The notes: a model not told the origin generated them from the sequence alone. A stretch of DNA of 64,000 nt from an uncultured Polyangiaceae bacterium (GCA_964392575.1 CAYMQT010000002.1:21832-85831); one strand, 5' to 3'; positions 28,651 to 46,586 are shown, counted from the first letter of the stretch. Numbers and translations: made by a program.

Positions 28651-28705
28651 GAAGTAACTCCCACTTGGAGTGCCCTAGAGCAGGAGTCGTGCCAGAGGAG
28701 CGATT

Positions 28706-30104: not shown

Positions 30105-30742
30105 TCAGGATCAACCTCCTCCCTCAGAAAAGACGCCGCGTTGAAACCGGTGGCGGCGGGGAAATGTGGGTTCTGGCCGCGGTGGGTGTGCTGGCACTCG
30201 AGATCGTGGGCCTGTTTTTCTACCACAACACCCTAGAAGCTCAGCTGCAGGACGAGCAGCAGAAAAATAAGCAGCTGAGCGCCAAGATCGAGGCCTCCAA
30301 GGAGTCGGTCAAGAATCACAAGAACGTTCTCTCCGAGCTCGAACGCATGCGAGCGCGTGAGGACGCCATCGCAAAGCTTCAGTCCGCCCGCACCGGACCG
30401 ACGGCTGTGCTGCTTGAAACGGCGCGCCTCCTCACTCCGGGGCGTGGGCCGAGTGTAGACCCGGAAAAGCTTGCTCAAGTGAGGAAGGACAACCCTCTTG
30501 CGGCCTTCAACCCCACTTGGGACACCCGGCGCCTTTGGGTCGAATCCTTCGCCGAGGAAAGCCGAGTCTTGCAGATTTCTGGTGTGGCGCGGGACGGGGA
30601 AGACGTGAGTGAGCTCGCGAAGCGCATGAACCTTTCCGATTACTTTGGCTCCGTTCGCATTCTGCCCGGGCAGAGAACCAGGGACAGTGCCTCTGGTCTA
30701 GAGCTCGTGAAATTCTCCCTCGAGGCGGAGGTAAAATACTGA
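30101..30742 (+). CDS. pilN: Type IV pilus assembly protein PilN
   Basis: ATGA overlap with pilM. Canonical N-terminus MIRINLLPQKRR followed by a TM segment. Confidence 0.85.
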   Translation: MIRINLLPQKRRRVETGGGGEMWVLAAVGVLALEIVGLFFYHNTLEAQLQDEQQKNKQLSAKIEASKESVKNHKNVLSELERMRAREDAIAKLQSARTGPTAVLLETARLLTPGRGPSVDPEKLAQVRKDNPLAAFNPTWDTRRLWVESFAEESRVLQISGVARDGEDVSELAKRMNLSDYFGSVRILPGQRTRDSASGLELVKFSLEAEVKY

Positions 30743-31341
30743 TGGCTGACAGTGCTCTTTCCAGAATGCCGCTCCCGGCGAGAATTGGCATCACGGTCTG
30801 CCTTCTCGTGCTCGGAGGACTGGCCTATTATGTGCTGTTTTTCAGCGAAACTTCGGGCCAAATCGAGACTACGGTGGCGGCCCGCTCGAAACTCGAAAGT
30901 GATTTGAAGGACGCCAAGCAAGCGGAGTCCCTCTATCAGAAGGATCTGGAGGAGTTGGCCAAGCGCCGCGAGCGTGAGCGCGAACTCAACAAAGTGTTGC
31001 CTCAGACGACCGAGTACCCGGCGTTTCTTTCCTCGGTGCAGTCCGTGGCCAACGCATCCGGAGTGGATCTGACCGCTTGGACCCCGCAGCCTGAAGTGCG
31101 CGCGGAATACTACGCCAAGCTCCCGATGAAGGTTCAGCTCACGGGACGCTTTCACCAGATTGCCAAGTTCTTTTATGGGATCGGACAAAACGACCGAATC
31201 ATGAACATGGAGAACATTTCTCTATCGAGTCCGCGGGTGGTCGACCAGGACATCTATTTGAAGGTGGAAGGCCTCGCGACCGCCTTCCGAGCACTCGGCT
31301 CTGAGGAAGCTGAAGCAGCCGAAAAGAAGAGGAAGCGCTAA
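30742..31341 (+). CDS. pilO: Type IV pilus assembly protein PilO
   Basis: 1-nt overlap with pilN. TM segment, coiled coil and a PilO-like C-terminal part (LPMKVQLTGRFHQIAKFFYGIGQNDRIMNMENISL). Confidence 0.85.
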   Translation: MADSALSRMPLPARIGITVCLLVLGGLAYYVLFFSETSGQIETTVAARSKLESDLKDAKQAESLYQKDLEELAKRRERERELNKVLPQTTEYPAFLSSVQSVANASGVDLTAWTPQPEVRAEYYAKLPMKVQLTGRFHQIAKFFYGIGQNDRIMNMENISLSSPRVVDQDIYLKVEGLATAFRALGSEEAEAAEKKRKR

Positions 31342-31342
31342 G

Positions 31343-32047
31343 ATGAAAAAGCTAGCCGCCGCCTCCCTTGCGCTTGCCCTTCTCGGGTGTGAAGAAGAGC
31401 CCGCTCTTCAGTTTGGACAGCCGTCGCCTCCTGCGGGCGGGCGTTCCGCCAAAACGGCAGCCCCAGAAGCGGAAAAAGCCAGCGATTTACCACCTGCGGT
31501 CGATTTTCAGGAGACGGCCTTCAATGAATCTGAGCGCAGTCGCGACCCGTTTCGGAACTATGCCAGGGCTTTCGTCGACGAAGCCCGCGGGCAGGTGACT
31601 TCCCAGCGTGAGGTCCTTTTGGATCAGTATGCCATCGAAGAGCTCAAGCTGGTCGCTCTGATTCAGCGCATCGAGCCCGCGCGAGCCATGCTGGTCGACC
31701 CGTCCGGGGTAGGTCATGTGGTCCAGCGAGGGCAGTTCATTGGCCGCGCCTCTGTCGTTCAGCCGACGGGAGGTGTGGGTGCTGCCTACGAGGTGAACTG
31801 GCGAGTGGACCGCATCCGCGAGGGAGATTTGGTGCTCGTGCGGGATGACCCCTCGAACCCTGATGTTCCGAGTGCCACCCGGGTGCTGCCCCTCAGGACC
31901 GGGGAAATTACCGCCACAGGGGAGAAGAAGGATGGCCAGTCCGAGGGCGGCCTCGAAAGTGAGCTCAGGAAGATGCAGGAGCGTCTGGCAGCCTTGGCGG
32001 CAGCCGAGGCGGCGAAGCAGCGGCAAGAGCAAGGGGAAAAACCCTAA
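31343..32047 (+). CDS. pilP: Type IV pilus assembly lipoprotein PilP
   Basis: Lipobox (LALALLGC) and a PilP-like beta domain (LKLVALIQ...AMLVDPSGVGHVVQRGQFIG). Position between pilO and pilQ. Confidence 0.75.
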   Translation: MKKLAAASLALALLGCEEEPALQFGQPSPPAGGRSAKTAAPEAEKASDLPPAVDFQETAFNESERSRDPFRNYARAFVDEARGQVTSQREVLLDQYAIEELKLVALIQRIEPARAMLVDPSGVGHVVQRGQFIGRASVVQPTGGVGAAYEVNWRVDRIREGDLVLVRDDPSNPDVPSATRVLPLRTGEITATGEKKDGQSEGGLESELRKMQERLAALAAAEAAKQRQEQGEKP

Positions 32048-32130
32048 GAATTTGTTCCTTTGATCGACACCGAAGTAGAGTCCTCCATCATGCCGCGAAA
32101 ATGCCGCGGACCGCAGGACGGAGACAGCGG

Positions 32131-34419
32131 ATGCGCCCGACTTTCATGAGAACTCATCGACAACTCACCAGCTTCTTCTTGGCGGCTAGCTTGTTTTTCG
32201 CTCAATCTGCTTGGGCTGGTGAAGGAGCCGAGGTCACGGACGTCCGCCTGACTGATGGTGAGAACGAGATGGGTGCCGTCGAGATCGAGCTGACGGGTGT
32301 TCCGACCTACACCGCTCGCCTCGACGAGAACGCCAAGAGGTTGATCATCGATCTCACAGGTTCTCGGTTGAAAGGTGCTCCTGAGGCCCTTGTTTCTGGC
32401 CGGGGAGTCGTCGGCGGGGTGACCACCCAGGCGTTTGAATCGGGCGAAAGCACCACGACCCGGGTTTCGATTTCTCTTCTGAAAGAGGCTCGTTACGGGG
32501 TTTCGGTAGAAGGGAATCGCCTCAGGGTTCGCTTTGAGAAGGGAAAGTTTGGGGCGCTGTCCGCTCTCGACCGGCGCGCTCTCGCCGCACAGATACGCAC
32601 GACGACGGAGTCGGCCGTGTCTGGTCTGCATTTTGACCACAAGACCGGCAGAGACGTGCTCGAAATCGTGCTCGACTCGCGGGCCCGCTTTCGTGTGGAA
32701 AATACGAGCAAAGGCCGCAGCATATTGATCCTGCGCGACACCGTTTTGCCCAAGGAATTGTCCCGGGTGCTCGATGTCGACGCTTACGACGGCGACGTGC
32801 ACAAGATCTCGGCCTTTTCAAAAGGGGGAGATGTGATCCTCGAGGCCAAGCGCAACACGCATGTCACCAGTTCGGTGGAGCGCAAGGGCAACACTCTGCT
32901 CTGGACGTTCTATCAGCCCGGAAGCCTCCACTCGAGCCTCACGGGCATGGGCAAGGACGGGGGCGCTGCACGCAAATCCCGCACCATCTCTACGGACGCG
33001 CCGCTTTTGGAGCTTCCCGAGATCCACACCGGCATGGAAAGTCTCATCGACGCCACCACGGCCGAGTCGGACGAGGCCGCTGCCTTCGGTCCTGCGGTCA
33101 TGGGTCAGGCGCGTGGTTACTCAGGACGGCGCATCGATCTGGATTTGAAGGACGCCGATATCCATAACGTTCTGCGTTTGATCGGGGACGTTTCGCGGCG
33201 CAACATCGTTGTCGCCGATGACGTAGGCGGTACCGTAACGATTCGTTTGCGCAACGTCCCTTGGGATCAAGCGCTGGCCGTGATCCTTCAGTCCAAGAAG
33301 CTGGGTATGGTGGAGCAGGGCAACCTGCTCCGGATTGCTCCGCTCGACACTCTGCAGCGAGAGCGTGAGCAGGAGATCGAGCGCCGCAAGATGGAAGTGG
33401 AGCTTGCGCCCATCGAAACCCGCCTCATTCCCGTCAGCTACGCCAGTGCCAGCGAGCTTCAGTCCCGCGTCGCGCCGTTGCTCTCGGATCGCGGGAGCCT
33501 CACGACCGATGAAAGAACGAACACGCTCATCGTTCGGGACGTGAGTGCATCGCTGGATCAGGTGGAGGAACTTTCCCGTGCTCTCGACACACAGACTCCC
33601 CAGGTGTTGGTAGAAGCGCGCATCATTGAAGCGACGAGCACCTATTCACGCGACGTCGGTATTCAGTGGGGCGGTTCTGGAACCGTGTCTTCGACCACAG
33701 GCAATCCGACCGGACTCGCGTTTCCGAGTTCCATTGGCGTAGCCGGTGGCGCCACGGACGGTCAGACCCCGACCCAGGGTCTTAGCCCGTTCACCCCCAC
33801 CGTTGCCAACCCCAACTTCGCCGTCAACATGCCGGCCGCGGTCGGTACGGGTCGAGGTGGCGCGCTCGGTCTCACTTTTGGCTCGATCGACAACAATGTG
33901 AATCTGGCGCTCCGTCTCTCGGCGGCTGAGTCGAGCGGTATGCTCCGCATTCTTTCCAGTCCGCGCATTCTGACCATGGACAACATGGAAGCGAAGATCA
34001 GCCAAGGTACGATGATCCCGTTTTCCCAGGTTTCAGCCCAGGGCGTGCAGACGGTCTTTCAGAATGCCACCCTCGAACTCAACGTGACGCCGCATGTGAC
34101 CGCCGACGGCTCCGTGCAGATGGAAGTGAAGATCAGCAGAGACGAGCCCGACTTCAACCAGACGTCTGCTCGTGGTGATCCAACCATTCTCAAGCGTGAA
34201 GCCAACACCCAGCTGCTCGTCATGGATGGTCACACGGCGGTGATCGGCGGCATCTTCGTTCGCAACACGGGTCGCAACGTGGACCAGGTACCGTTCTTCG
34301 GAGACATTCCTATCCTTGGGATCCTTTTCCAGCGGCGGCGAGCGACGGATACCCGCGGTGAGCTCGTGATCTTCATCACTCCGCGCATCGTCAACCGCGC
34401 AGAAGCGCTCGGTCGCTGA
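32131..34419 (+). CDS. pilQ: Type IV pilus secretin PilQ
   Basis: AMIN-like N-terminal domains, a secretin N domain (DADIHNVLRLIGDVSRRNIVVADDVGGTVTIRLRNVPWDQAL) and a secretin C domain (VPFFGDIPILGILFQ). Start taken at ATG 32131 before the signal peptide; the ORF opens at 32101. Confidence 0.9.
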   Translation: MRPTFMRTHRQLTSFFLAASLFFAQSAWAGEGAEVTDVRLTDGENEMGAVEIELTGVPTYTARLDENAKRLIIDLTGSRLKGAPEALVSGRGVVGGVTTQAFESGESTTTRVSISLLKEARYGVSVEGNRLRVRFEKGKFGALSALDRRALAAQIRTTTESAVSGLHFDHKTGRDVLEIVLDSRARFRVENTSKGRSILILRDTVLPKELSRVLDVDAYDGDVHKISAFSKGGDVILEAKRNTHVTSSVERKGNTLLWTFYQPGSLHSSLTGMGKDGGAARKSRTISTDAPLLELPEIHTGMESLIDATTAESDEAAAFGPAVMGQARGYSGRRIDLDLKDADIHNVLRLIGDVSRRNIVVADDVGGTVTIRLRNVPWDQALAVILQSKKLGMVEQGNLLRIAPLDTLQREREQEIERRKMEVELAPIETRLIPVSYASASELQSRVAPLLSDRGSLTTDERTNTLIVRDVSASLDQVEELSRALDTQTPQVLVEARIIEATSTYSRDVGIQWGGSGTVSSTTGNPTGLAFPSSIGVAGGATDGQTPTQGLSPFTPTVANPNFAVNMPAAVGTGRGGALGLTFGSIDNNVNLALRLSAAESSGMLRILSSPRILTMDNMEAKISQGTMIPFSQVSAQGVQTVFQNATLELNVTPHVTADGSVQMEVKISRDEPDFNQTSARGDPTILKREANTQLLVMDGHTAVIGGIFVRNTGRNVDQVPFFGDIPILGILFQRRRATDTRGELVIFITPRIVNRAEALGR

Positions 34420-34445
34420 TCGACTGGGTCGCTCTCGACCTTCCA

Positions 34446-34474
34446 ACGCCCCCGACGAAAGTAGGGGGCGTTTT
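34446..34474 (+). terminator. Rho-independent terminator candidate after pilQ
   Basis: Stem ACGCCCCC/GGGGGCGT (8 bp), 10-nt loop, then TTT(T)G. Confidence 0.6.
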
Positions 34475-34648
34475 GCGTCGTCTTCGCCGCCAGGGAGGCT
34501 TTTCCGTCCGCCTGGGTGAAGAAAACTGCTTGAAATCGACGGTCGCGCTCGAAGGCAAAGCGCTTTGAAGCAGGACAACGCGCTTCAAATGGCCAATATG
34601 TAAAGATGACAAGACAAATTGATAGATCGGACAGTAGAAGCAACCCCA

Positions 34649-34677
34649 TTGACACTTGCCAATATTGAGCGGATATT
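34649..34677 (+). promoter_or_regulatory. Sigma-70-like promoter candidate (TTGACA-N17-GATATT)
   Basis: Read directly in an AT-richer patch. The -10 element ends only 6 nt before the GTG at 34684, so either the mRNA is near-leaderless or the true start codon lies further downstream. Confidence 0.3.
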
Positions 34678-34683
34678 TGATAG

Positions 34684-37600
34684 GTGGAGAGGTCCGCCAC
34701 AAAGTCAACCAAGTTGTCACTTGGCGCCTCTGGCTCAGTGCGAGGCGAAGAGCTGCCTCCGCTCGTCTCGTCAGAGGAACTGGCGGGGCTTCCCCTCGGG
34801 ACCCTTTTGGGCCGCGGCGAGTCGGCGGAGGTCTATGGGGCCAGGGCGGACAGTGGAACCCCGCTTGCTCTGAAGATCGCCCGTCCGGGTGCAGAGGAGG
34901 CCCTCCTTCGGGAAGCGCGCCTTCTGGCTCTGGTGGAGGGGGCGCCGGTCCCACAACTCTTGGGTGTAGCTAGGCGTGATGGCCGCGTCGTACTCGCCTT
35001 GTCTCTTGCAGCCGGAGAGTCGCTCGATCAGATCCTAGCGCGCGACCCTTCTCAAGAAGAGCGCGCGACCCTCGCTCGTTTGCTGCTCTCGGTCGCTCCG
35101 CGCGCTCTTGCGCATCTGCACGCCTTTCGTCGTGCTCACGGTGACGTGAAACCGGAGAATCTCTTCGTCGACACGGTGTCCGGCTCTGTGACCCTGATCG
35201 ATCTGGGTCTTTCGGATCCAGGGGGCGAGATCCGGGGAGGGACGCCGCGGTATTTACCTCCGGAAGTGAAAAGCGGAAGTGTCGTGGCTCAGGCGGCGGC
35301 TGATGTTTACGCGCTCGGTGTGGTTCTTCTTGAGGTCTTGGCCCCAGAGGTAGGCGACGAAGTGCCTGAACTTTGGCATCTGAAGAATCTTGCGCCTGCG
35401 TGGGGAAAGCTTCTCAGCGTGATGCTCCTGGGTGCGCCCGGACTCAGGCCCACGATGGATTTCGTGTCTGAGGAAGCACGCTGGCTGGGTCTCGTTCCGT
35501 TCGAGAGTGAAACGGGCGGACTTTCGGTTCTGCGCCGCCACTACATCGCCGTCCGGGCGCTCGATTTTTTGAGTACAAGGGGCGCGAGCGGTCGGAATTT
35601 TCCGGAGGGCCTTCCCGGCGCTTGGCTCAGGCGACTGGTGGAGCTGGAAGACCGCATCTTAGAAGTGGAGAGCGGGCGCGGAGTGACGTCTCGGCGGGGG
35701 ACTTCCGTTTCGACGGAGGGGATTTCTTGCGAATTGTCAGCGCACGATCGAAGTCGTTTTCTTGCGCGCCTCATTGGGCCTCACGCGGCGGATTATCGCA
35801 TCGCGGTCGCCCGCGACGAAGAGCTGATAGAGACGCTGCTTTCGGTCGGGAAGGGCAGAGATTTTCGCTCGCTCATCCGCGCGGACTTCGAGAGGGAAAA
35901 CGGAGCCGGGGAAGAAGCGGTCGGTGACGGCCCGATTGAGTGGGCTCTGAGCCTGGGGAGGAGTCCGGTTTCTCGCGTCCTCTTACGGCGGATTTTGGAG
36001 TCGAAGGAGGCGCCGGACGTGGTGCGTCTCAAGGCGGCTCGTAAAGCACGTCAACAGGGAGATCTTCGTCTCGCAAGTCAGCTGCTTCTGCCTTTGGAAG
36101 GTCCGGAGGCCGTCCTTGCGCGAGCGCTCGTCTTGAACCGTTCGGGCGCTTCCGCAAAGATCGCGGATCTCCTTGAATCCGTGCTTGAAAGCACAGATCT
36201 TCCTCAAGTCTCGTCGCGCGCGGCCGCCCTGCTCGCCCGTGGGCGTCTCGATGCAGGTGATGCAGAGGGAGCGCTGCACTTGTTAGAGAGCCGGGCACCG
36301 ACGGCAAGTTCTTGCGAAGTGATGGCTTTGTCATTCTTGGCGCTCACCGATCCAGAGCGCGCTCTTGCGTGTGTGCGGAGCGGTGAGGCGTTTGCGACCG
36401 ACGATGAAGAGACCGCCCGTCTTTTTGGAGTGCGGGGAATGATTGAACATCAACAGGGAGAAGCGCAGGCGGCGCTCTTGAGTTTCAGTCGGGCGGTAGC
36501 CTTGGCGAGTCGAGAGGGGGCGGCTCTTGAAGAAGCGACCTATTTGACCGGGGTGGCTGCCGCTGCTGCAGACGCCGGACAGACCGCCGATGCTTTGGCA
36601 GCGAGTGAGCGAGCGGAGGTGCTTTTTGAATCCCTCGAAAAGGGCATGCACACGGCGCGCGCGCTGCTATCCCGGGCCGCTGTTTTGTCCCGTCTGGGTG
36701 CGGAAGTGGAACTTGCTTCGGTGGTGCGCCGGGGTTCCGCCCTGGCCCAGAGCGTGGGCGATCAACTGTGCGAGGCTTATTTGGCCCTCGCTTGGGCGGA
36801 TGGATCGTCAGAGAGGGTGACGAGCGAGCAGGCGGCGCGCCGTGCCTCGGAACTCATCGGCACTGGTAGCCTTGAGGATCGTTTGCGCGTTGGTGCACGA
36901 TTGCTTTTTCACGGCATCGTCCCCGAGGGCGCGACGGACGAGTCGGCAGAAAAGTCCGCGTCTCGCGAAGCGGCGTTTGACTGGTGGGCGGCACGGACGC
37001 GCGCCGTTGAGGAGGTCGAGCGGGGGGGGCGTACCGAGACGTCCCACGCCGAGAGTCAGTACCTGATAGGTCGTCTGCTCTCCTTTTCTGTGGATGAGAT
37101 CTCCCCTGCTGTCCTTGGTCCGGGCATGGTGGCGGGCGCGCATCTCGCCCTTCGCGTGGGATTGAGCGAGGAAGCGCGGGCCTTGTTTTCAAGAGCCCGG
37201 GTGACGGCGGAGCGCTTTTTGTCGACGGTTCCTGAGGCGTACCGCACGCAGTGTGAGGACCTTCTGTGGGTGAAGCAAGCGCGCGGGAGCCGGGCGGACG
37301 GTCCCACCGGATCGACCAAGTTGGAGGACGTTGAAGCGCTTCTGCGCGCTCTTAGTCAGCGCAGAGGTTTCCGCGCATTGCTCGATCAGGTGCTCGACAT
37401 GCTGCTGCTTTGGACCGGAGTCGAGCGGGGACTCCTGCTGCTCCCGGCTCCGGGCGACAAGTTGGTCGTGCGAGCGGCCCGCAACCTGGACCGAAGGAGT
37501 CTCACGGAAGAGCAGAGGACGCTCAGCTTCTCCATGGCTCGACGGGCTTTATCCGAAGGCCGGCCGGTCGTGGCCGTGGACGCTATGCATGATCTTTCGC

Positions 37601-38913
37601 AGATTCATAAAAGCGTTCATGCGCTCAATCTGCGTAGTGTGCTGGCGGTTCCTTTGGCCGCACGCGGTAAGGTCGTGGGAGTTGCTTACCTGGATGATCG
37701 TATTCGGCGGGGAGCCTTCGGGGAGGCCGAGCTTTCTTGGGTGAGTTTGATTGCGACCGTTGCTGCGCTGGCGATTTCCGACGAGAGAGATCGGATCCAG
37801 CTGCGGAGGGCCGTAGGGCGCGCCGAGCGTGCGGAGCGGTCACTGGAGAAGAAACTGTCGAACCGGGAGGTGCAACTGGAAGTCGCCGAGCGAGAAATTT
37901 CTCGCATTCGAGGTGAGGGCGCGCTGCGCGGAACCTATGACCAGATCATCGGCCGCAGCCCCAAGATGATGGATGTGCTTCGACTCGTGGATCGCGTGTC
38001 TCAAGCGGACGTTCCGGTCATGATTTATGGCGAATCAGGGACCGGGAAGGAGCTGGTCGCTCGCGCCATTGCGCAAACGGGAGGGCGAAAGGAGCGGCCG
38101 TTCGTGGCGGAGAATTGTGCCTCCGTTCCGGAAAGCTTGCTCGAATCGGCCCTCTTTGGTCACAAGAGAGGCTCCTTTACGGGCGCCACCCGTGATCAAC
38201 CTGGTTTGTTTGAGTTGGCGCATGGCGGCACGCTGTTCCTCGATGAAATCGGGGACATGCCGTTGACCATGCAGGCGAAGCTTCTCCGTGTCCTTGCGGA
38301 CGGAGAGGTACGGCCCCTGGGTGCAGCGCGGTCAATCAAGGTCGATGTACGCTTGATCGTGGCGACCCATCGCGACCTGGAAATTTTGGCGAAGGAGGGA
38401 CAGTTTCGCGAAGATTTGTATTATCGTCTCAAGGTCGTCAGCGTATTTGTGCCGCCGCTGCGCGAAAGAAGAGAAGACATTCCCGTCTTGGTTGCTCACT
38501 TTGTGAAGAGGTATGGGGGCGGGCGCGAGCGACCTCTTTCGCCTGCCGCGCTTTCACGGCTCTGTAATTTTTCCTGGCCCGGCAACGTCCGTCAGCTTGA
38601 AAATGAGATTCGTCGCTTGCTCGTGCTCGGCGGGCAAGAACTCACAGCAGCAGATCTCAGCCCAGAGGTTCTCAGTGATTCAAGCGATCTCCCGCAGGCG
38701 CGCACTTTGCGGGAGAAGGTAGATGCTCTTGAAAGGCGGCTCGTAGTCGAGGCTCTTGAGCAAGCTCGTGGGAATCAGACTCGGGCGGCTGAAGCGCTCG
38801 GGCTCAGTCGCTTTGGCCTCTCTAAAATGACCCAGAGATTGGCCATCGATGTGTCCAAAAGCCGGCTGAAGGCTGGACGGATCCAGCAGCGCGGGTTAGA
38901 CGATTCCAGATGA
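34684..38913 (+). CDS. Ser/Thr kinase - TPR-like - GAF - sigma-54 AAA+ activator - Fis-type HTH fusion protein
   Basis: 1409-aa uninterrupted ORF. Kinase motifs (LGRGESAEVY; LALKIA; HGDVKPENLF; DLG; GTPRYLPPE). Long helical middle region. GAF-like block (GLLLLPAPGDKLVVRAARN...LAVPLAARGKVVGVAYLD). Sigma-54 interaction domain (GESGTGKELVARAIA; GSFTGA; LFLDEIGDM). C-terminal HTH (NQTRAAEALGLSRFGL). The exact start is uncertain. Confidence 0.85.
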   Translation: MERSATKSTKLSLGASGSVRGEELPPLVSSEELAGLPLGTLLGRGESAEVYGARADSGTPLALKIARPGAEEALLREARLLALVEGAPVPQLLGVARRDGRVVLALSLAAGESLDQILARDPSQEERATLARLLLSVAPRALAHLHAFRRAHGDVKPENLFVDTVSGSVTLIDLGLSDPGGEIRGGTPRYLPPEVKSGSVVAQAAADVYALGVVLLEVLAPEVGDEVPELWHLKNLAPAWGKLLSVMLLGAPGLRPTMDFVSEEARWLGLVPFESETGGLSVLRRHYIAVRALDFLSTRGASGRNFPEGLPGAWLRRLVELEDRILEVESGRGVTSRRGTSVSTEGISCELSAHDRSRFLARLIGPHAADYRIAVARDEELIETLLSVGKGRDFRSLIRADFERENGAGEEAVGDGPIEWALSLGRSPVSRVLLRRILESKEAPDVVRLKAARKARQQGDLRLASQLLLPLEGPEAVLARALVLNRSGASAKIADLLESVLESTDLPQVSSRAAALLARGRLDAGDAEGALHLLESRAPTASSCEVMALSFLALTDPERALACVRSGEAFATDDEETARLFGVRGMIEHQQGEAQAALLSFSRAVALASREGAALEEATYLTGVAAAAADAGQTADALAASERAEVLFESLEKGMHTARALLSRAAVLSRLGAEVELASVVRRGSALAQSVGDQLCEAYLALAWADGSSERVTSEQAARRASELIGTGSLEDRLRVGARLLFHGIVPEGATDESAEKSASREAAFDWWAARTRAVEEVERGGRTETSHAESQYLIGRLLSFSVDEISPAVLGPGMVAGAHLALRVGLSEEARALFSRARVTAERFLSTVPEAYRTQCEDLLWVKQARGSRADGPTGSTKLEDVEALLRALSQRRGFRALLDQVLDMLLLWTGVERGLLLLPAPGDKLVVRAARNLDRRSLTEEQRTLSFSMARRALSEGRPVVAVDAMHDLSQIHKSVHALNLRSVLAVPLAARGKVVGVAYLDDRIRRGAFGEAELSWVSLIATVAALAISDERDRIQLRRAVGRAERAERSLEKKLSNREVQLEVAEREISRIRGEGALRGTYDQIIGRSPKMMDVLRLVDRVSQADVPVMIYGESGTGKELVARAIAQTGGRKERPFVAENCASVPESLLESALFGHKRGSFTGATRDQPGLFELAHGGTLFLDEIGDMPLTMQAKLLRVLADGEVRPLGAARSIKVDVRLIVATHRDLEILAKEGQFREDLYYRLKVVSVFVPPLRERREDIPVLVAHFVKRYGGGRERPLSPAALSRLCNFSWPGNVRQLENEIRRLLVLGGQELTAADLSPEVLSDSSDLPQARTLREKVDALERRLVVEALEQARGNQTRAAEALGLSRFGLSKMTQRLAIDVSKSRLKAGRIQQRGLDDSR

Positions 38914-39803
38914 AATCCGGCGTTGTCGCGGCAGCTCAAGGAGCGTCGCTCTCGCGCCCGCTCTTGAAGTGGGCGGGTGGGAAGCGTCAGCTCTTGCATC
39001 AGATATGCAAGAGGCTACCTTCAAAAATCGAGACCTACTACGAGCCGTTCGTAGGTGGAGGGGCGGTTTTCTTTTCTCTTGCGGCTCAGGGACGATTCCG
39101 ACGCGCGGTCCTGTCGGACCAAAATGAGGAACTGATCGCGACCTATCGTGCGGTCAAACAGGACGTAGAAGCGGTGATCCGAGAACTCAAGAAGATGCGG
39201 CACTCGGAAGAAGATTACTACGAGATCCGCGCCTGGAAGCCCCGACTCTTGGCCAAGCGGGCAGCGCGCATGATTTACTTGAACCGGACCGGGTACAACG
39301 GCCTCTACCGAGTGAATCGTTCCGGTCAGTTCAACGTCCCGTTCGGTCGCTACGTGCGTCCGAACATCTGCGACGAGGATCGGCTCCGTGCGGTCGCCCG
39401 TGCGTTCTCAGGAGTGGACCTTTTGGTGGAGGATTTTTCGGGCGTGGTCTTAAAGAGTCGTCCTGGCGACGCCGTGTATTTCGACCCGCCTTACGTTCCT
39501 GTGTCAGCCACAGCGAAGTTCGCTGAGTATCACAAGAAGGCTTTTGGTGATGAGGAGCAAGAAGAACTCGTTCGCGTTTATGAGAGCCTGACTGAACGCG
39601 GGGTTTCGGCCGTCTTGTCCAATTCCGACACCCCGCGCACACGCGCCTTGTATCGCCACCTGTGCTACGAGCGGGTGAGCGCCCGTCGCAACATCAACTC
39701 TGCCGCTGATCGTCGGGGACCCACGACCGAGCTGCTCGTGTACAGCTCGCCCTCGGCGAGCCAGCTCGCGGTGCCTCGAAAGGTCGTTTTGGGGGGCCGT
39801 TAG
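38910..39803 (+). CDS. dam: DNA adenine methyltransferase (Dam/D12 class)
   Basis: LLKWAGGKRQLL, EPFVGGGAVFF (AdoMet motif) and VYFDPPY (catalytic DPPY). ATGA overlap with the upstream gene. Confidence 0.9.
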   Translation: MKSGVVAAAQGASLSRPLLKWAGGKRQLLHQICKRLPSKIETYYEPFVGGGAVFFSLAAQGRFRRAVLSDQNEELIATYRAVKQDVEAVIRELKKMRHSEEDYYEIRAWKPRLLAKRAARMIYLNRTGYNGLYRVNRSGQFNVPFGRYVRPNICDEDRLRAVARAFSGVDLLVEDFSGVVLKSRPGDAVYFDPPYVPVSATAKFAEYHKKAFGDEEQEELVRVYESLTERGVSAVLSNSDTPRTRALYRHLCYERVSARRNINSAADRRGPTTELLVYSSPSASQLAVPRKVVLGGR

Positions 39804-40688
39804 ATGGGCAAGGTGAGCGAGCAGCAGGCGCCTCAGAGCAAGCAGGCGCCTCAGAGCAAGCAGGCGCTTCAGAGCAAGCAGGCGCTTCAGATCAAGCAGA
39901 GTGAGGAGGTTTCTCTCGGGCGCGTGGGAATCATCGCTTTGTTCGGTTTCGTCATCGGCGTGGTTTGGCCTCGCCTTGCTGGGGTCAGTCTGGTGCCCGA
40001 AGCACCGGTGGAAAAAGGCGCACTCAGTTCACCGGAGGAGGAAACAAGTACGCCGACACCCGACACGGAGCCGGAGGTGATTGAGCTGACTCCCGAGGAT
40101 AGGCTCGCCATCAGCCCGCCCAAGATCACGAGTTGTATGGACTCCGAGGGAAAGAAGAGCAACTCCTGCGATGACGTGGATGTGGACTCGGTGGTCCACT
40201 CAGCTTTGATTTCGCTCTTGGGGTGTCCTTCGGCGACGGGGGTCTTCGGTAACCTGTCTTTGGGCTTCAAGCTCAATTTCGACAAGGGCAAGGTTCTGAG
40301 TCCAGAGAGCGGTCGCAGTACGGATCTGCCTGAGTTCACGACAAAAGAACTGCTGTTGTGTGCTGAGAAAGAGTTTTCTTTGATTCAGGTGAAGCCGCTC
40401 CCGCACAAGTACGCCGAGTACCAGGTGTACTATCAGATGGAATTCAAAACTCCGGAGGCTGCCGCGGAGGAGAAAACGTCGGTGACCGCCGCAAGTGGAC
40501 AAGCCACCGTGCGCTGGCAGGTCGCTCAAATCAGAAAGGAAGCCGACACGGAGGCGGAAGTGTTGACCCGGCTTCTCGCCGGCGCGCGAGTGATCGTCAC
40601 AGGTAGGATGGGGAAATGGTACCGCGTGAAATTTGACGCCAAAGGGCGCGAAGGTTGGGTGCATGGGGCCGCCCTTGGCTTCAAGTAA
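39804..40688 (+). CDS. Single-TM protein with an N-terminal QAPQSK repeat and a C-terminal SH3b-like domain
   Basis: The ATG immediately follows the dam stop. TM segment (VGIIALFGFVIGVVW). The C-terminus (VLTRLLAGARVIVTGRMGKWYRVKFDAKGREGWVHGAAL) looks like a bacterial SH3_3 domain. Confidence 0.6.
   Translation: MGKVSEQQAPQSKQAPQSKQALQSKQALQIKQSEEVSLGRVGIIALFGFVIGVVWPRLAGVSLVPEAPVEKGALSSPEEETSTPTPDTEPEVIELTPEDRLAISPPKITSCMDSEGKKSNSCDDVDVDSVVHSALISLLGCPSATGVFGNLSLGFKLNFDKGKVLSPESGRSTDLPEFTTKELLLCAEKEFSLIQVKPLPHKYAEYQVYYQMEFKTPEAAAEEKTSVTAASGQATVRWQVAQIRKEADTEAEVLTRLLAGARVIVTGRMGKWYRVKFDAKGREGWVHGAALGFK
39825..39896 (+). repeat. Four tandem 18-bp units (CAGGCGCCTCAGAGCAAG) encoding QAPQSK
   Basis: Read directly. 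Units start at 39825, 39843, 39861 and 39879. Confidence 0.9.
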
Positions 40689-41195: not shown

Positions 41196-43373
41196 TCAAA
41201 ACAAACGGTCGAGCTGTTCGAGACTTGCCGTTTGGACGAAAAAGGTCGTGGAAGCGTCGCTTTGCCACAACATTTCGGCGCTCTGGCCCATCCATGCGGT
41301 CACTCCTCCGAGCGAAATTTTGAAGGGCTCGGGCTGACCATCGGGACCCTTTCGTTCTCCAGAGAGTTGCATACGCGGGCTCTGCATCCGTGAAAGTGGC
41401 GCCTCCGAAGGCGAAGCGGACAGGACGCGCACCGCTCGTAGGGCGTCGATGAGGGAGGCCACCATGTGATCACTTGCCTCGCCACCCGAGGCGCGAAGGA
41501 CACCTGCGCGGAGTTCGAACTCATAGGAGTGCCCCCGCACCTCGACCTGCAAGCGCAAGAGATCGTCGGGTTCGAGGGTGACCGGAGCTCGATCCGTAAA
41601 TGAAACCATCAGACGTCGTTGCGTTTCGAGCGGAAGAACGAACGAGCCTTCCGTGAAATTTGCTGAGGCGAGGATCCCTCCTCGGACGCGGCCGCCGAGA
41701 GCAAGTTCGTAGGATTTTGAGCCGGCGGCGGTGTCGACAGTGAAGCGCACCTTCGTCCTTTCGAGATCTGGACTTGTCTCTTCTTCAAGAAAGCGGACGG
41801 CGCTCAAATGTGCGAGTTCTTCGAAGGCAAACCGCGAGAGTTCGGGATCTGCGGGCGCGGATCCGTTCAAGAAAACACCGTCTTTCGTGCGGGTGAGATG
41901 CTGACGATGCAGGTTCGGAGTCTGCACCTCCATCTCCCGAATCTCCTCGGGCCTCACTTGAAGCAGGGTGCGCTCACGCGCCCAGGCATCCAGTGCCCGA
42001 AACACCCAGCGCCCGCTTTGAGGTACCGAGAAAACGGCGCCGTCGTCTTCGCGAGAGACAAAAAGTTGTCCATCCTTGAGCCGATGCGTCGTCAGTTTCG
42101 CGCGATGGACCTTTGAGCCTGTCGATGGATCTTGGTGGACGAAGGTTTCGGGAAGTTGCCCGGTCACAGTGAGCGTTCCTAGGGGCTGAGCGTCCGCGGG
42201 GAGCGCATTGACCCGTTCCAGCGCCAACTCGGACAGTTGCTGAAGAAATTCGTCTCCGGCGTCGCTCGGGATGCTCTGCCCTTCGCGGCTCGCAAGGATG
42301 TACCCTGCATCTTTGCGCATGAGGTCGAGCTTCTTGTCTTGCTCGGAAATGACGACATGGTCGATCTCATCTGCCTTGAAGAACACGGCGTGCGCTCCGG
42401 GCCAGAGTTTTTCCTCCGTGATGAGTGCGGGGGTGATCGTCCTCGTCACACAGCCTGAAAGAGCATGCGGAGGGCTTCGCACCGCTCCCATGAGCAAGGG
42501 TTCTTCGGGGCACTCGGCGCCTAGGACGACTTCGTACTCCGCCCTTCCCTCTCCGAAAAGGGTGACCGTGACAAGGTCTTTTTCGTGGGGCTTGGGCAGG
42601 GCTGTATCAGCAACGGTATCCACGAACCTTTCCAACTTGGCCCGCGCGAGATGGAAGAACAGAAGATCGACGAGATCGCGATCAGCGAGTGTGCGACTCG
42701 AAGAAGTCTCGACAAAAAACCCGGAGGGCTCAGGGACGAGGGAGATCCAAATGTCGCCGCGACTCATTGTGATCTTGCGAGCGGATTTCCTGCCGATGGG
42801 GAAAAGCAGGTTGCCTTTGAACGACTGTCCGCTGGCCTTGAGAGCCGCGACGAGTTCGGCGGGGATCACTCCGTTCATCTGCGTATTTCCAGGACCACTC
42901 ACCTGCGCGTAGGCGGCGCCCGCAGGGGCGGGGGCGCTTTTGCCGACCAAGAGTCGGAAGGTCCGCGGGCCGGCGAGAATGCGGACCTCCGCTTGAGGCT
43001 CTGAAAGCCCCATGACGCTTGTGTTTTCTTCAGAAAGGACGCGAACGAAGGTCGAAAATTCAAGAACGTTCAAAAGGTCGGTCACGGCTGCGCGATCGGC
43101 CTCGGTCTCTTCGCCCTCCCCCAGAAAGTATTCATCGGTGGCTTCTGCGGTCGCTCCGCCTTTTCGCCTGAGCAAGGTGCCAAGCTGTGGTTCCTCGGGA
43201 GAAGAGAGGCGAATTTCGCTGATGGCGGAGCGCTCAAAGGCCGGGAAAACGTTGTCCTTGCGTGCGATGAGTTCGCTCGATGTGGGGGCTCCGGCAGTCA
43301 AGGCCAGGTAGATGCCGAGGCCGATTGCAACGACAAATAGACTGATGTCGACCCAAGCTTTGCGCGCGGTCAT
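41196..43373 (-). CDS. DUF4340-like protein (last gene of a GldA/F/G-type ABC operon)
   Basis: N-terminal TM anchor and large size. ATGA overlap with the GldG-like gene. DUF4340 proteins typically occupy this position. The call rests mainly on context. Confidence 0.5.
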   Translation of the reverse strand: MTARKAWVDISLFVVAIGLGIYLALTAGAPTSSELIARKDNVFPAFERSAISEIRLSSPEEPQLGTLLRRKGGATAEATDEYFLGEGEETEADRAAVTDLLNVLEFSTFVRVLSEENTSVMGLSEPQAEVRILAGPRTFRLLVGKSAPAPAGAAYAQVSGPGNTQMNGVIPAELVAALKASGQSFKGNLLFPIGRKSARKITMSRGDIWISLVPEPSGFFVETSSSRTLADRDLVDLLFFHLARAKLERFVDTVADTALPKPHEKDLVTVTLFGEGRAEYEVVLGAECPEEPLLMGAVRSPPHALSGCVTRTITPALITEEKLWPGAHAVFFKADEIDHVVISEQDKKLDLMRKDAGYILASREGQSIPSDAGDEFLQQLSELALERVNALPADAQPLGTLTVTGQLPETFVHQDPSTGSKVHRAKLTTHRLKDGQLFVSREDDGAVFSVPQSGRWVFRALDAWARERTLLQVRPEEIREMEVQTPNLHRQHLTRTKDGVFLNGSAPADPELSRFAFEELAHLSAVRFLEEETSPDLERTKVRFTVDTAAGSKSYELALGGRVRGGILASANFTEGSFVLPLETQRRLMVSFTDRAPVTLEPDDLLRLQVEVRGHSYEFELRAGVLRASGGEASDHMVASLIDALRAVRVLSASPSEAPLSRMQSPRMQLSGERKGPDGQPEPFKISLGGVTAWMGQSAEMLWQSDASTTFFVQTASLEQLDRLF

Positions 43374-44869
43374 GACTCAGCTTCCCCTTTCGCGCGCGAG
43401 AGCGCCTCCTTGCGTGAGCGCCGGACGAGAACGATGCCGCCCAGACTGGCCGCGAAGAGAGGCATATAGATGAGGACGTAGCGGAGGACGCCGCTCAGGG
43501 CAGATTCATCCAGGCCGATGCCCGCGTGCTTCACGCTCCTGTCTGTGGTCGATGCGGTTACGGGACGCGACAGGACCCAAGAGAAGGCATTTTCGGTGAA
43601 GATGCGGTTCCCATAATAAGCGGGCTCGCGGAAGGAGGCATTGGAAAGGACGTTGGAACAGCCCACGACGAGAGAGCGGGCGAGGACCCCGGAGCCGTCT
43701 TCGACCCGGGCGGCGGCTAGAGTCAAAGGGGCGCCGCTCTCGGACGTCTTGTCTGCGGCACTTTCCGGTCCGAGATCGGTAAGGACTTCCGCCTTGTCCG
43801 TCGTCGTGAGAAGCGCAGTGGCGCCGCCTCCTTTGCGCAGGGTGAGGGGTCCTGAGGCGCTGAGTACGACTCGGGCATCGGTGCGGGCGGCGGGTTGGCT
43901 CAGACCACGTGTGAGCGGATGAGACTTCACCTCGGGAAAGAAGGCTTCTCCCAGGGCCGAAGGAAAGCGATGAGCGGGATCCTTTTCCAGGACGAAACCC
44001 GGCATGAGCTCCACCCCCAGTCGTGCGGCCACGCGGTTCAGGGAGACTTCGGCCAAACGCCCCTCTTGGTTCACGATGGGGTCCACGAACAACAGAAGCG
44101 CCGCTCCTCGTTCATGAGCATCGAGGAGCGCCTCCTCGTGAGCTTTGGGGAAGGGTCTGGTCGGACCGACGACGACGACGGCATGGCAGCCTTCAAGAGC
44201 TCGTCCTGGATCTGGCACGTCGAGAGGAACGCGCTCGGGCCGAAGGTTGCTCTTGTCGAGGCGATTTCTCAATTCAAGCAATCCCTCCCTCGCACCATCA
44301 TCGAGGCTTGCCTCCCCGTGGCCAGTCACGAAGCAGATCCGCTCTTCCGGTCGACCTCGCACGCGGGTGAGAGCTTCGGTGAGTTCTGCTTCCAGGACCG
44401 GCGCCAAACCTGCTTCACTCGGCCGGAGTCGGTCTGAACGGATGAACCACTTCCTCGATCCCGAACGGATGAGCAGGGCGGCATCAGCAACCAAGGCTGT
44501 TTCGCTGACGTGATCCGTGCCGATGTCGTATTTCTGGGTCAGGGCGAGAAACTCCGCCAAATCCCGATCCGGGTCGATGTAGCGAACGCGGATGAGGGCG
44601 CTCTCGGCGCGGTAGGTTTCCAGGAGTTGCCTCACGGAAGAGAGCCGCGGATCTCCCGAGGAGAGCAAGACGAGCACTTGTGTGTCCGTGCGAAGGTCAG
44701 CAAGAACGCTGCGGGATGCCTCGTTGAGGGTGAAGCTCCTGTCTCTCGATAGATCGATCCGTGTGAAACGCCGCGCCGAGAGCAAGTTCACTTCGCTGAG
44801 GAGTACCCCGGCGCAGAGCACGCCCACAGCACCCCACGCCACGTGATTGGTAAGAAGACTCGACTTCAC
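43370..44869 (-). CDS. GldG-like ABC-transport auxiliary protein
   Basis: Start placed at GTG 44869 (GTGA overlap with the permease stop). N- and C-terminal TM segments and a GldG-like motif (ICFVTGHGE). Confidence 0.65.
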   Translation of the reverse strand: MKSSLLTNHVAWGAVGVLCAGVLLSEVNLLSARRFTRIDLSRDRSFTLNEASRSVLADLRTDTQVLVLLSSGDPRLSSVRQLLETYRAESALIRVRYIDPDRDLAEFLALTQKYDIGTDHVSETALVADAALLIRSGSRKWFIRSDRLRPSEAGLAPVLEAELTEALTRVRGRPEERICFVTGHGEASLDDGAREGLLELRNRLDKSNLRPERVPLDVPDPGRALEGCHAVVVVGPTRPFPKAHEEALLDAHERGAALLLFVDPIVNQEGRLAEVSLNRVAARLGVELMPGFVLEKDPAHRFPSALGEAFFPEVKSHPLTRGLSQPAARTDARVVLSASGPLTLRKGGGATALLTTTDKAEVLTDLGPESAADKTSESGAPLTLAAARVEDGSGVLARSLVVGCSNVLSNASFREPAYYGNRIFTENAFSWVLSRPVTASTTDRSVKHAGIGLDESALSGVLRYVLIYMPLFAASLGGIVLVRRSRKEALSRAKGEAES

Positions 44870-45615
44870 GCGGTCCTCCACGAGGAGACGACGCGGGCAG
44901 AAACGAAGAGCGCCCATACGGTGACCGATACGTGTAAAATGACGCGGCGCGAGTCGATGAGTCCTTTTGACATCTCTTCGAGGAGCGTCGTCAGAGACAC
45001 GTAGCCGCAAAGCTCGCGCAGAGGGCCGGGTTCGAAAATGTACTCACCGATGCCGAGAACAAACAGCCCGAAAAGGGCCGCTGACGTGAGCAGGAGGGCG
45101 ACGAGCTGATTTTTAGACAGGGCGCTCATCAAGACCCCGATCCCAAGGTAGCTCATGCCTACGAGGAAGAGGCCAAAGTAGCTAGAAAAGAGAGCTCCTA
45201 AGTCGACCATACCGGTCTCTCGCAACAAGTAAGCGTAGAGGCTCGTAGGCGCCCAGATCAGGCAGAAGGTGACGAGCGCGCTCGCATACTTGCCTAAAAC
45301 GATCGACCATGGCGCCACGGGCGCGGAAAGCAAACTGTCTATGTTGCCCGTCTTTCGTTCTTCAGCGAGAGTCCTCATGGTGAGGCTGGGGCAGAGTAAG
45401 AGCAGGGTGAACGACATGAGCAGGGATTGCTTTCCGAAGTACGCGCTCAGCGGATCACCCATATCCGCTTCTGATCCGAGAGTGGTAAAGTGTGCAACGA
45501 TGCTATAGAAAACCCCTCCTTGAAGCAGGAGAAACGTCGAAAGGAGAACCCAGGCGAGAGGCGTGACCCAGAGACTGAGGAGTTCTCGCTTGAAGATGGC
45601 CCAAGTCGTGTTCAC
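44866..45615 (-). CDS. ABC-2 type permease (GldF-like)
   Basis: Six-TM ABC-2 permease pattern (MNTTWAIFKRELLSLWVTPLAWVLL...). GTGA overlap with the ATPase gene. Confidence 0.8.
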   Translation of the reverse strand: MNTTWAIFKRELLSLWVTPLAWVLLSTFLLLQGGVFYSIVAHFTTLGSEADMGDPLSAYFGKQSLLMSFTLLLLCPSLTMRTLAEERKTGNIDSLLSAPVAPWSIVLGKYASALVTFCLIWAPTSLYAYLLRETGMVDLGALFSSYFGLFLVGMSYLGIGVLMSALSKNQLVALLLTSAALFGLFVLGIGEYIFEPGPLRELCGYVSLTTLLEEMSKGLIDSRRVILHVSVTVWALFVSARVVSSWRTA

Positions 45616-46586
45616 TCCTCGCTTCCCCCAGCTTCGGTGGTCAGTTGAGAAAACACCTCATCGAGCTTGGCCTTGACGGGTCCCGCCGAGGTGACCGAGA
45701 GGCCCTTTTCGACGAAGAAGGCGACGACTTCGGCGGTCAGATGGGGCCCGTTCGCGAAGCTGACAGAGCTACTGAAGAAGTGAGCGCCTTCCTGCGGTTC
45801 TCTCCGCAAGGACCATTTTCGGGGAGCTGCGGAAATCGCAGCCTCAAACGCAGAGATTGCCGCTTCGGAAGCAGCCGTTTCAGAACCAGTTTGCACGGCA
45901 ACGAAGGCTCTCTTTCCGCTGCGCGAAGTCAGGTCCTCCATGTCCGCTTCTGCCACGAGCGTGCCCTGATGAATGACGATGGCTCGACTGCACGTCGCCT
46001 CGACCTCCGAAAGCACATGTGTTGAAAGGAGGATCGCTCGCTCTTTGGCGAGCCGGCGGATGAGTTTCCTCATGTCGGCGATCTGGTTGGGGTCGAGGCC
46101 TGCCGTGGGTTCGTCCAGGAGCAACGCGGGAGGGTCGTTCAGGAGGGCGTCGGCAAGGGCCACTCGCTGCCTGTAGCCTTTGGAGAGATGCGCGATGCGT
46201 ACGCCATACATGTCGGCGGCGCCTGCTTGCGTGAGGGCATCGTCAATGACCGCCCTCTGCTTTCTCCTTTTGACCCCTTTGAGTTCCGCGCGAAAAAGGA
46301 GGTACTCGTGCACGGTCATTTCCGGATAGAGCGGCGGATTTTCAGGCATGTATCCAAGGAGAGCCTTGGCCTTCAAGGGTGCTTGTTCGAGGTCGTGTTC
46401 GCCGATGCGGATGCTTCCTTTGGTCGGAGCCAAAACGCCCGCCAGCATGCGGAAGGTCGTTGTCTTGCCGGCCCCGTTGGGTCCGAGAAAGCCCACGGCT
46501 TCCCCCCGCTTGACGCGAAAGCTGACACCAGAAACAGCTCTGGTGCGGCCGAAGGATCTTTCGAGCGAACTGGCAACAATCATCAT
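45612..46586 (-). CDS. ABC transporter ATP-binding protein (GldA-like)
   Basis: Walker A (GPNGAGKTT), signature (LSKGYRQR) and Walker B (LLLDEP). Confidence 0.9.
   Translation of the reverse strand: MMIVASSLERSFGRTRAVSGVSFRVKRGEAVGFLGPNGAGKTTTFRMLAGVLAPTKGSIRIGEHDLEQAPLKAKALLGYMPENPPLYPEMTVHEYLLFRAELKGVKRRKQRAVIDDALTQAGAADMYGVRIAHLSKGYRQRVALADALLNDPPALLLDEPTAGLDPNQIADMRKLIRRLAKERAILLSTHVLSEVEATCSRAIVIHQGTLVAEADMEDLTSRSGKRAFVAVQTGSETAASEAAISAFEAAISAAPRKWSLRREPQEGAHFFSSSVSFANGPHLTAEVVAFFVEKGLSVTSAGPVKAKLDEVFSQLTTEAGGSEE

Follow-up and report, generated by a model that had tools for sequence, protein, structure and literature searches.

The window analyzed here, by which we mean the whole 64,000-nt stretch of DNA from an uncultured Polyangiaceae bacterium (GCA_964392575.1 CAYMQT010000002.1:21832-85831; positions are counted from its first letter), carries a gene for a 1409-amino acid (aa) sigma-54-dependent enhancer-binding protein (EBP) in which a Hanks-type Ser/Thr kinase, a long helical-repeat region, a GAF domain, an AAA+ module and a helix-turn-helix (HTH) are joined in a single chain. 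The gene overlaps that of a Dam-family DNA adenine methyltransferase, and genes for an SH3b membrane protein and a small protein follow on the same strand. Sequence comparison confirms the EBP-dam-SH3b arrangement, which dozens of related genomes share.

34684-38913 (+): kinase/TPR/GAF/sigma-54 activator (EBP), 1409 aa, GTG start, with TTG 34714 as an alternative
38910-39803 (+): Dam-family N6-adenine DNA methyltransferase, 297 aa, its ATG overlapping the EBP stop (ATGA)
39804-40688 (+): bitopic SH3b membrane protein, 294 aa
40740-41153 (+): ORF137, a 137-aa protein and probable fourth gene of the operon, with the Shine-Dalgarno sequence AGGAGGAG 8 nt upstream

The first three open reading frames (ORFs), with their coordinates and motifs, had been described in an original prediction for this DNA, and ORF calling and translation confirm them. 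The EBP stop and the dam start share the ATGA at 38910-38913, and the dam stop TAG (39801-39803) abuts the ATG of the SH3b gene at 39804, both as had been read from the sequence. The prediction was right to place these three genes together and missed a fourth: the SH3b stop is followed by a gap of 51 bases, containing the strong Shine-Dalgarno AGGAGGAG, and then by ORF137, which has no match in Pfam, NCBIfam or PADLOC. Most orthologous loci keep ORF137 behind the SH3b gene, and it therefore probably belongs to the unit. A start codon that overlaps or abuts the upstream stop and is kept in relatives, our definition of a coupled operon, is found at the EBP/dam junction.

The translated EBP carries the motifs LGRGESAEVY, ALK, HGDVKPEN, DLG, GESGTGKE, GSFTGA and LFLDEIG, and profile searches with Pfam and NCBIfam bear out the kinase, GAF, sigma-54 AAA+ and HTH domains that had been proposed for it, as they do the Dam and SH3b domains of its neighbors. 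The domains are arranged as follows.

34801-35553 (+): Hanks-type Ser/Thr kinase domain, non-RD (HGD), aa ~40-290; Pkinase 2.2e-22 (aa 40-220)
35356-37353 (+): all-helical TPR-type solenoid, family-specific, aa ~225-890; AlphaFold2 model
37369-37779 (+): GAF domain, aa 896-1032; GAF 1.1e-12 (898-1031), GAF_2 1.3e-12
37945-38694 (+): sigma-54 AAA+ module with lid, aa 1088-1337; Sigma54_activat 5.9e-68 (1088-1254), AAA_lid_14 3.3e-19
38722-38820 (+): Fis-type HTH (HTH_8), aa 1347-1379; HTH_8 4.9e-08

Residue conservation was assessed in an alignment of 26 full-length orthologues with 39-53% identity. The kinase scores 80.2 bits against PF00069 in Pfam (cut-off 31.7); K64, E77, H152-G153-D154, N159, D173, T187, D207 and R255 are invariant, and G43, G45 and P193-E194 are kept in at least 90% of the orthologues. 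As the catalytic motif is HGD and not HRD in 26 of 26 orthologues, the kinase falls into the non-RD class, an assignment that does not exclude kinase activity. This pattern indicates that the Hanks kinase is intact and under purifying selection. In the AAA+ module (228 bits against PF00158, Sigma54_activat; cut-off 20.2) the Walker A and B residues are invariant, as are the G, F, T, G and A of the GAFTGA loop, which reads GSFTGA at aa 1163-1168. Hence the catalytic residues of both modules are unchanged throughout the alignment, and degeneration of either, which would have spoken against the prediction, is not seen. The HTH (33 bits, cut-off 22) is nearly unchanging across the family, with N1364...L1386 invariant, and many residues of the GAF domain are invariant too. 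The charged linker that follows the GAF domain (aa 1033-1087) is assumed to be helical from its composition.

The approximately 650 residues between kinase and GAF domain match a Pfam repeat family below threshold only (TPR_12, 18.5 against 30.1). AlphaFold2 predicts a continuous all-helical solenoid for this middle region (predicted local distance difference test (pLDDT) 85.3, predicted template modeling score (pTM) 0.85), and Foldseek finds 39 matches in the PDB at E <= 0.001, almost all of them TPR or related helical-repeat proteins; among the neighbors are OGT-TPR, LGN, APC/C subunits and the anti-sigma protein DdvA of Myxococcus xanthus. The model and its neighbors agree with the helical, TPR-like middle that had been suggested. 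The protein thus has an AAA+ sigma-54 activator domain, a GAFTGA loop and a C-terminal HTH, by which we define an activator of this class, together with a TPR/alpha-solenoid.

Among NCBIfam families the C-terminal half is nearest to NifA, NtrC and NorR. NifA is the best match over aa 879-1318 (1.7e-106), with a score of 357 against a cut-off of 529, and because every equivalog score is far under its cut-off, the EBP is none of the named regulators. NifA, NorR and FhlA have the GAF-AAA+-HTH_8 core in common with it, and gating of the AAA+ module by GAF would be the expected logic; compared with these three, the EBP of the window adds an N-terminal part of approximately 890 aa, made up of the Hanks kinase and the TPR solenoid. 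Jelsbak, Givskov and Kaiser reportedly described FHA-domain EBPs of Myxococcus xanthus in 2005. These likewise lead Ser/Thr-kinase signaling into sigma-54 activators within the Myxococcota, but there the kinase acts in trans on the FHA domain, whereas in the window it is present in cis and there is no FHA domain. The closest characterized architecture is that of M. tuberculosis PknK, in which an N-terminal Hanks kinase is joined to a helical-repeat region with a transcription-related output as a fusion to a MalT-like regulator (PMC1262709), and several orthologues of the EBP have been auto-named 'PknK' by JGI. The EBP differs from PknK by its sigma-54 AAA+ module, GAF domain and Fis HTH, all of which PknK lacks. 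In the window's orthogroup the solenoid is without the AAA_16/STAND ATPase that the larger paralogues (P0039-P0095) have.

The fusion of kinase and EBP had been called unusual, which is so only among characterized EBPs. Among 5.8 billion proteins searched, Pkinase and Sigma54_activat occur together in at least 90 protein clusters (90% identity), with source names that include Polyangiaceae, Planctomycetes and Coatesbacteria. Approximately 37 of these clusters share the architecture and length found in the window (1344-1439 aa), and the remaining ones are longer (1500-1760 aa), frequently with an AAA_16/STAND module. The orthogroup of approximately 1400 aa comprises about 100-170 representative clusters, mostly labeled Polyangiaceae or Myxococcales. 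Its solenoid is family-specific, because only 171 of 1.84 billion representative proteins match it (116 at E <= 1e-10), nearly all of them proteins of approximately 1400 aa or fragments thereof. The literature searches turned up no paper on kinase-EBP fusions, experimental or otherwise, or on EBP-dam operons.

The Dam protein scores 206.5 bits (7.7e-61) against PF02086 (MethyltransfD12) and 276.7 bits against TIGR00571 dam (cut-off 114.85), and has both the S-adenosylmethionine motif FVGGGAV (FxGxG) and the catalytic motif FDPPY (DPPY). Its nearest solved relatives are DpnM (2dpm, 2e-53) and E. coli Dam (2ore/2g1p, 4e-48), which belong to the same D12 family. Aligned to these structures it keeps the segments LKWAGGK, YNGL-R and NVPFGRY, which we take to be the carriers of the GATC contacts in E. 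coli Dam, and judged by these segments it very probably methylates GATC. It remains under the E. coli-type equivalog cut-off (189 against 441) and differs from E. coli Dam and DpnM in being translationally coupled, as its gene order suggests, to a sigma-54 activator. Orthologues fall into more than 120 clusters at 58-80% identity, the named ones labeled Polyangiaceae or Myxococcales bacterium. The only match of a 643-aa protein encoded at 10050-11981 (-) is to MutS domain V (MutS2-like or a MutS-related ATPase), an observation relevant to whether the lineage has methyl-directed mismatch repair.

In principle dam could protect against a GATC restriction system, as part of restriction-modification or an anti-phage function. 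The best PADLOC model is that of a type II methyltransferase (7e-92), slightly above the orphan-methyltransferase model (6e-84), and the closest solved relative, DpnM, comes from the DpnII system. Against this, the +/-10 kb examined in the window and more than ten annotated orthologous neighborhoods contain no restriction endonuclease gene, GATC is not depleted, and dam is vertically inherited and core, which makes a protective role extremely improbable. The 439 GATC sites in 64 kb, approximately one every 150 bp, equal the Markov expectation (observed/expected ratio 1.02); the ratio is approximately 1.0 in pooled Dam-linked and in Dam-less loci alike, so that this comparison is uninformative. 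Like E. coli Dam, the methylase looks orphan, and it appears from its distribution to behave as a core, vertically inherited one.

A second alternative starts from the kinase. Since it is intact and under purifying selection, and since stoichiometric co-translation is what would be expected of partners, it might phosphorylate the co-translated Dam, or the solenoid might bind it, and so switch the activity of the methylase. PADLOC gives only generic kinase, AAA+ and methyltransferase domain matches at the locus; the kinase matches the PADLOC/NCBIfam models mad6 and PglW, at a generic kinase-domain level. The defense-kinase matches cover the catalytic domain only, neither the window nor the orthologous loci contain PglZ, PglY/BrxC or other defense components, and the locus is core chromosome and not an island. 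We therefore regard control of Dam by the kinase as very unlikely. Pgl/BREX type 2 (PglW kinase and PglX methylase) likewise brings a Hanks kinase and an adenine methyltransferase together, but the window has no PglZ/PglY, its methylase is of a different family and its setting is the core chromosome. Membership of a BREX type 2/Pgl or MADS defense system was rejected, given that no system-specific proteins were found in the window or in the orthologous loci.

The arrangement was followed through related genomes, with 76 loci added by a metagenome contig scan that used the family-specific TPR segment. Several orthologous loci sit on contigs of 0.9-3.8 Mb (L085 from ERZ25039495, L171 from ERZ25039505, L001 from MFD05684.bin.1.403), long enough to suggest that they were assembled from long reads. 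The state of dam was counted in 64 distinct loci that contain the 3' end of the EBP gene.

dam directly downstream, same strand: 28 of 64 loci
adjacent dam with a 4-nt start/stop overlap: 17 of the 28
adjacent dam with 1-nt overlaps or short gaps: 11 of the 28
dam 0.6-7 kb downstream, same strand: 9 of 64 loci
dam inverted: 1 of 64 loci
no dam within at least 5 kb: 10 of 64 loci
no dam within the 1-5 kb covered: 10 of 64 loci, inconclusive
uninformative for dam: 6 of 64 loci

The full layout of the window, pilMNOPQ-EBP-dam-SH3b-small ORF followed by convergent DUF4340/GldG-like ABC genes, is found in L081, with 53% identity of the EBP, and in L082-84, with 46%. At 41-43% identity (L085, L088) xdh genes replace pil upstream, and a Ser/Thr kinase gene inserted on the minus strand has moved the SH3b gene away; the 4-nt overlap of dam with the EBP stop is retained. 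When the look-up started from Dam, three orthologues with 61-71% identity had the EBP upstream in every context returned, with overlaps of 1-4 nt (among them GCA_015075635.1, GCA_020633235.1, GCA_048500035.1 and GCA_029286965.1). In a neighbor-joining tree of 47 EBPs the adjacent-dam state is spread throughout the family and is therefore probably ancestral; a single derived clade contains the '5-7 kb' state, and most of the 'none' cases fall into a second clade. No dam gene lies near the two members that were checked of the longer paralogous kinase-EBP families. Taken as a matter of gene order, the EBP-dam association thus appears specific to the orthogroup of approximately 1400 aa, is probably ancestral and has occasionally been broken. 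The synteny check that the prediction had called for finds the arrangement conserved and does not refute it.

Could the pairing be an accident? By this account dam landed behind the EBP gene, lost its translation signals and stays because breaking the overlap would be harmful, with no functional relation between the two proteins. The E. coli dam operon is functionally mixed (aroK-aroB-damX-dam-rpe-gph-trpS). Dam is retained in the clade in which unrelated metabolic genes separate it from the EBP gene, and the whole neighborhood (SH3b, ORF137, DUF4340/GldG-like ABC genes, secA) is syntenic, so that slow rearrangement explains a part. What such hitch-hiking fits poorly is that the 4-nt overlap persists at about 40% EBP identity with the upstream neighborhood replaced, that no Dam orthologue without the EBP was found among the three looked up, and that the association is orthogroup-specific, the two larger paralogues examined being without dam. 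We hold a purely neutral origin of the pairing to be unlikely. The overlap kept down to approximately 40% EBP identity with changing flanks, together with the Dam-side exclusivity, argues for more than accident.

In the members of a soil clade (L110, 12449-19020; also L098, L114, L115 and L129) the inserted genes are on the opposite strand and encode a 2-oxoglutarate (2OG)-Fe(II) dioxygenase and ethanolamine ammonia-lyase. The eutB gene of this clade is fused to an N-terminal extension; its dam, likewise extended at the N-terminus (320 aa), must possess expression signals of its own. A second Hanks kinase (zinc ribbon and kinase, 727 aa) is encoded at 25650-27833 (-), beyond a FliA-like sigma gene, in the window's clade. 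Minus-strand kinase genes with 35-40% identity separate dam from the SH3b gene in L001, L085, L088, L148, L150, L154, L162, L163, L165 and L168; whether the second Hanks kinase is orthologous to these inserted kinases is uncertain.

The SH3b protein comes from a lineage-restricted family with 246 clusters. Its cytoplasmic tail, short and variable, is followed by a transmembrane helix, a variable linker, an alpha/beta domain with four cysteines and the C-terminal SH3b domain (SH3_3 1.5e-12 over aa 241-291; 48 bits, cut-off 27). AlphaFold2 models the protein confidently from residue ~90 on and predicts aa 38-58 to be helical. The segment aa 228-291 matches the SH3b cell-wall-binding domains of endolysins, lysostaphin and NlpC/P60 enzymes in the PDB; membrane-anchored, with its SH3b domain at an extracytoplasmic C-terminus, the protein is predicted to bind peptidoglycan. 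No significant PDB neighbor was found for the central four-cysteine domain (aa 97-235; pLDDT >95). The transmembrane helix and juxtamembrane segment (aa 38-69) hardly vary among 29 orthologues, more conservation than a simple anchor usually shows, and a Q/K-rich repeat (QAPQSKQ...) in the N-terminal tail occurs in the window copy only. In E. coli, dam neighbors the gene of DamX, a bitopic membrane protein whose SPOR domain binds peptidoglycan. A dam gene beside that of a bitopic SH3b membrane protein with predicted peptidoglycan binding is an architectural echo of damX-dam; SPOR and SH3b proteins are not homologous.

Upstream of the EBP gene the window contains the pilus genes that had been recognized there, now identified by profile matches, and both the terminator-like hairpin and the promoter-like element that had been noted.

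29034-34419 (+): pilM-pilN-pilO-pilP-pilQ, upstream neighbor and separate unit; profile matches, synteny
34445-34476 (+): intrinsic-terminator-like hairpin 3' of pilQ, a 9-bp G+C-rich stem followed by UUUU
34649-34677 (+): sigma-70-type promoter-like site TTGACA-17-GATATT; consensus scan, 10/12 matches

The hairpin has a folding free energy of -23.7 kcal/mol (z -3.83, with 0 of 200 shuffles equally stable), and a TTGACA box stands at the matching position in four closer relatives (L089, L091, L094 and L095). With these signals and the junctions, the EBP, dam and SH3b genes look like one translationally coupled unit with its own promoter, as had been proposed, and the proposal gains support from a junction geometry that recurs in many diverged relatives. 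The N-terminus of the EBP is uncertain by approximately ten codons: the ATG of its orthologues aligns with an AAG in the window, which leaves GTG 34684 or TTG 34714 as candidates. No sigma-54 (-24/-12) motif was found 5' of the EBP operon across 53 loci, and none of these promoters 5' of pilM in the window. The pilMNOPQ genes are adjacent in the window's clade only; they are 3-5 kb away in others and absent in several. The window as a whole is core chromosome, with flat G+C and genes such as secA, an rseP-like M50 protease gene, rsmB, dapA/dapB, lgt, thiC, hsp33 and gdh. On the other side of the operon, a cluster for DUF4340, GldG-like (ABC_transp_aux, DUF7088), ABC-2 permease and ABC ATPase proteins (41196-46586 (-) and 46602-49670 (-)) adjoins secA. 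It is in synteny with the operon in nearly all orthologous loci, even those without pil.

A candidate for a target of the regulator lies on the far side of the pilus genes, approximately 6 kb away.

27877-28650 (-): FliA/WhiG-like sigma-70-family factor gene, divergent from pilM
28679-28694 (-): conserved -24/-12 sigma-54 promoter TGGCACGACTCCTGCT, candidate target, ~30 nt before the FliA-like ATG
28750-28763 (no strand assigned): palindrome GGTCAAAGATGACT, candidate enhancer, 56 nt upstream of the sigma-54 promoter

The promoter motif TGGCACG-N4-CTGCT is kept in L081, L082 and L094, and its conservation implies that the organism would use sigma-54; rpoN is not among the genes of the window. 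The 13-nt core of the palindrome, GGTCAAAGATGAC (28751-28763), is the sole match to GGTCA-N4-TGAC in 64 kb, against 0.41 expected. The pattern (R)GTCA-N4-TGACC occurs once in each of the four loci with the FliA-like gene (the window, L081, L082 and L094), always 56-250 nt upstream of that gene's sigma-54 promoter, and in none of the other approximately 80 loci scanned. The sigma-54 promoter and the palindrome are together a good candidate for a promoter with its enhancer. No other EBP gene was found among the large ORFs of the window that were scanned, and from its proximity the promoter of the FliA-like gene is the most likely local target of the kinase-EBP. Over the whole window, 58 sigma-54-like matches were found against 59 expected by chance. 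Because the number of matches equals that expected, a perfect TGGCAC-N5-TTGC match at 62189-62203 (+), antisense within a PA14-domain gene (61329-62840, -), was set aside as probably due to chance. The region of the FliA-like gene has the look of an enhancer and promoter that serve a sigma cascade; flagella are not expected in this organism.

An epigenetic switch can also be considered, in which GATC methylation by the co-expressed Dam would alter the binding of the EBP or of the sigma-54 holoenzyme at the enhancers and promoters of the regulon. Methylated, hemimethylated and unmethylated states would then read the kinase signal differently and could give phase-variable or cell-cycle-coupled control of surface or motility functions. 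Regulators that work with a methylase are known from other bacteria, Dam with Lrp or OxyR and CcrM with GcrA. The Caulobacter circuit of CcrM with CtrA and GcrA, in which an orphan adenine methylase is part of a regulatory circuit, is the model for such a reading; unlike the Dam of the window, CcrM is of another methylase class, recognizes GANTC and shares no operon with its regulators. The EBP-dam pair is strongly and anciently kept while the flanking synteny decays, which suggests selection on the pairing. We know of no functional study behind the reports of methylation or of dam genes in Myxococcus hansupus and Archangium gephyra. A dam gene has been reported in A. gephyra, and the partial N6-methyladenine (m6A) at GATC in M. 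hansupus (31.9% of sites; PMC4765838) would fit a regulated, not saturating, methylation. On the other side, in 53 loci no GATC upstream of the operon keeps its position, and the GATC between palindrome and FliA-like promoter in the window and L081 is absent in L094. GATC occurs at its expected frequency, so that single sites are uninformative, and the EBP-dam pair is separated or lost in some clades. A methylation-dependent switch is therefore improbable in our view. The idea of a signaling-plus-epigenetic module that controls pili finds no backing here, given that the linkage to pil is variable, neither pilM nor the operon has a sigma-54 promoter, no GATC is conserved in position, GATC is at expectation and the pair is separable.

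Weighing these accounts, on balance we lean towards coupling of dosage and co-expression, in which a housekeeping-type orphan Dam is tied to a signaling regulator, as against a demonstrated methylation-dependent switch. The locus would be a conserved chromosomal four-gene operon of Polyangia-type Myxococcota, co-transcribed from its own sigma-70-type promoter and insulated from pilQ by the terminator. Its first gene would encode a one-component-style sigma-54 activator, with an active, non-RD Hanks kinase and a long TPR solenoid at the N-terminus as sensory and partner-binding input. The GAF domain and linker would gate the assembly of the AAA+ ring or its ATPase activity, and the Fis-type HTH would contact the enhancer, the likeliest local target being the sigma-54 promoter with its palindromic enhancer before the FliA-like sigma gene. 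The second gene would be the lineage's vertically inherited orphan Dam, without a ribosome-binding region of its own. Were Dam made by termination-reinitiation at the ATGA, its synthesis would be tied, in a low fixed ratio, to translation of the regulator. The third gene would provide an SH3b protein that is anchored in the envelope and binds peptidoglycan, the fourth a small cytoplasmic protein.

Several observations weigh against this picture. Position 2 of the GAFTGA loop is S in the window and A in at least 90% of the orthologues. The predicted -10 box ends only 7 nt ahead of the EBP GTG, which means that the start codon or else the promoter is placed imprecisely. In the derived clade, eutB, eutC and 2OG dioxygenase genes lie between EBP and dam; because these unrelated genes separate them, physical coupling is dispensable there. 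One clade and one Polyangiaceae metagenome-assembled genome are without dam within about 8 kb of the EBP. The link from the EBP to the FliA-like promoter is one of proximity only, and in clades without the pil neighborhood no FliA-like sigma gene lies within 10 kb.

Methylation and the regulator may be linked in function. The most far-reaching form of such a link would have adenine methylation hard-wired to Ser/Thr-kinase and sigma-54 signaling, either with the GATC state gating the enhancers and regulon of the EBP or with the kinase and TPR parts controlling Dam, on top of a cascade from sigma-54 to the FliA-like sigma factor beside the pilus genes; we consider this doubtful. Dosage coupling of an orphan Dam remains the reading that we prefer.

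All parts of the locus belong to known families, and the conserved coupling of a kinase-EBP with Dam was not found in the literature searched. To our knowledge, good understanding of orphan Dam is limited to Gammaproteobacteria and that of CcrM to Alphaproteobacteria, and the role of Dam in Myxococcota is essentially unexplored beyond scattered motif lists from single-molecule real-time sequencing. Through this locus a compact orthogroup can be delimited: sigma-54 activators fused to a kinase, with a TPR sensor specific to the family. A highly conserved Dam (58-80% identity) that is tied to one signaling regulator in most relatives offers a testable entry point, and raises the question of whether methylase dosage, or methylation itself, lies within a kinase/sigma-54 circuit of these social, surface-motile bacteria. 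If the link is one of co-expression only, the locus would be a clean natural example of a termination-reinitiation junction maintained over a long time.

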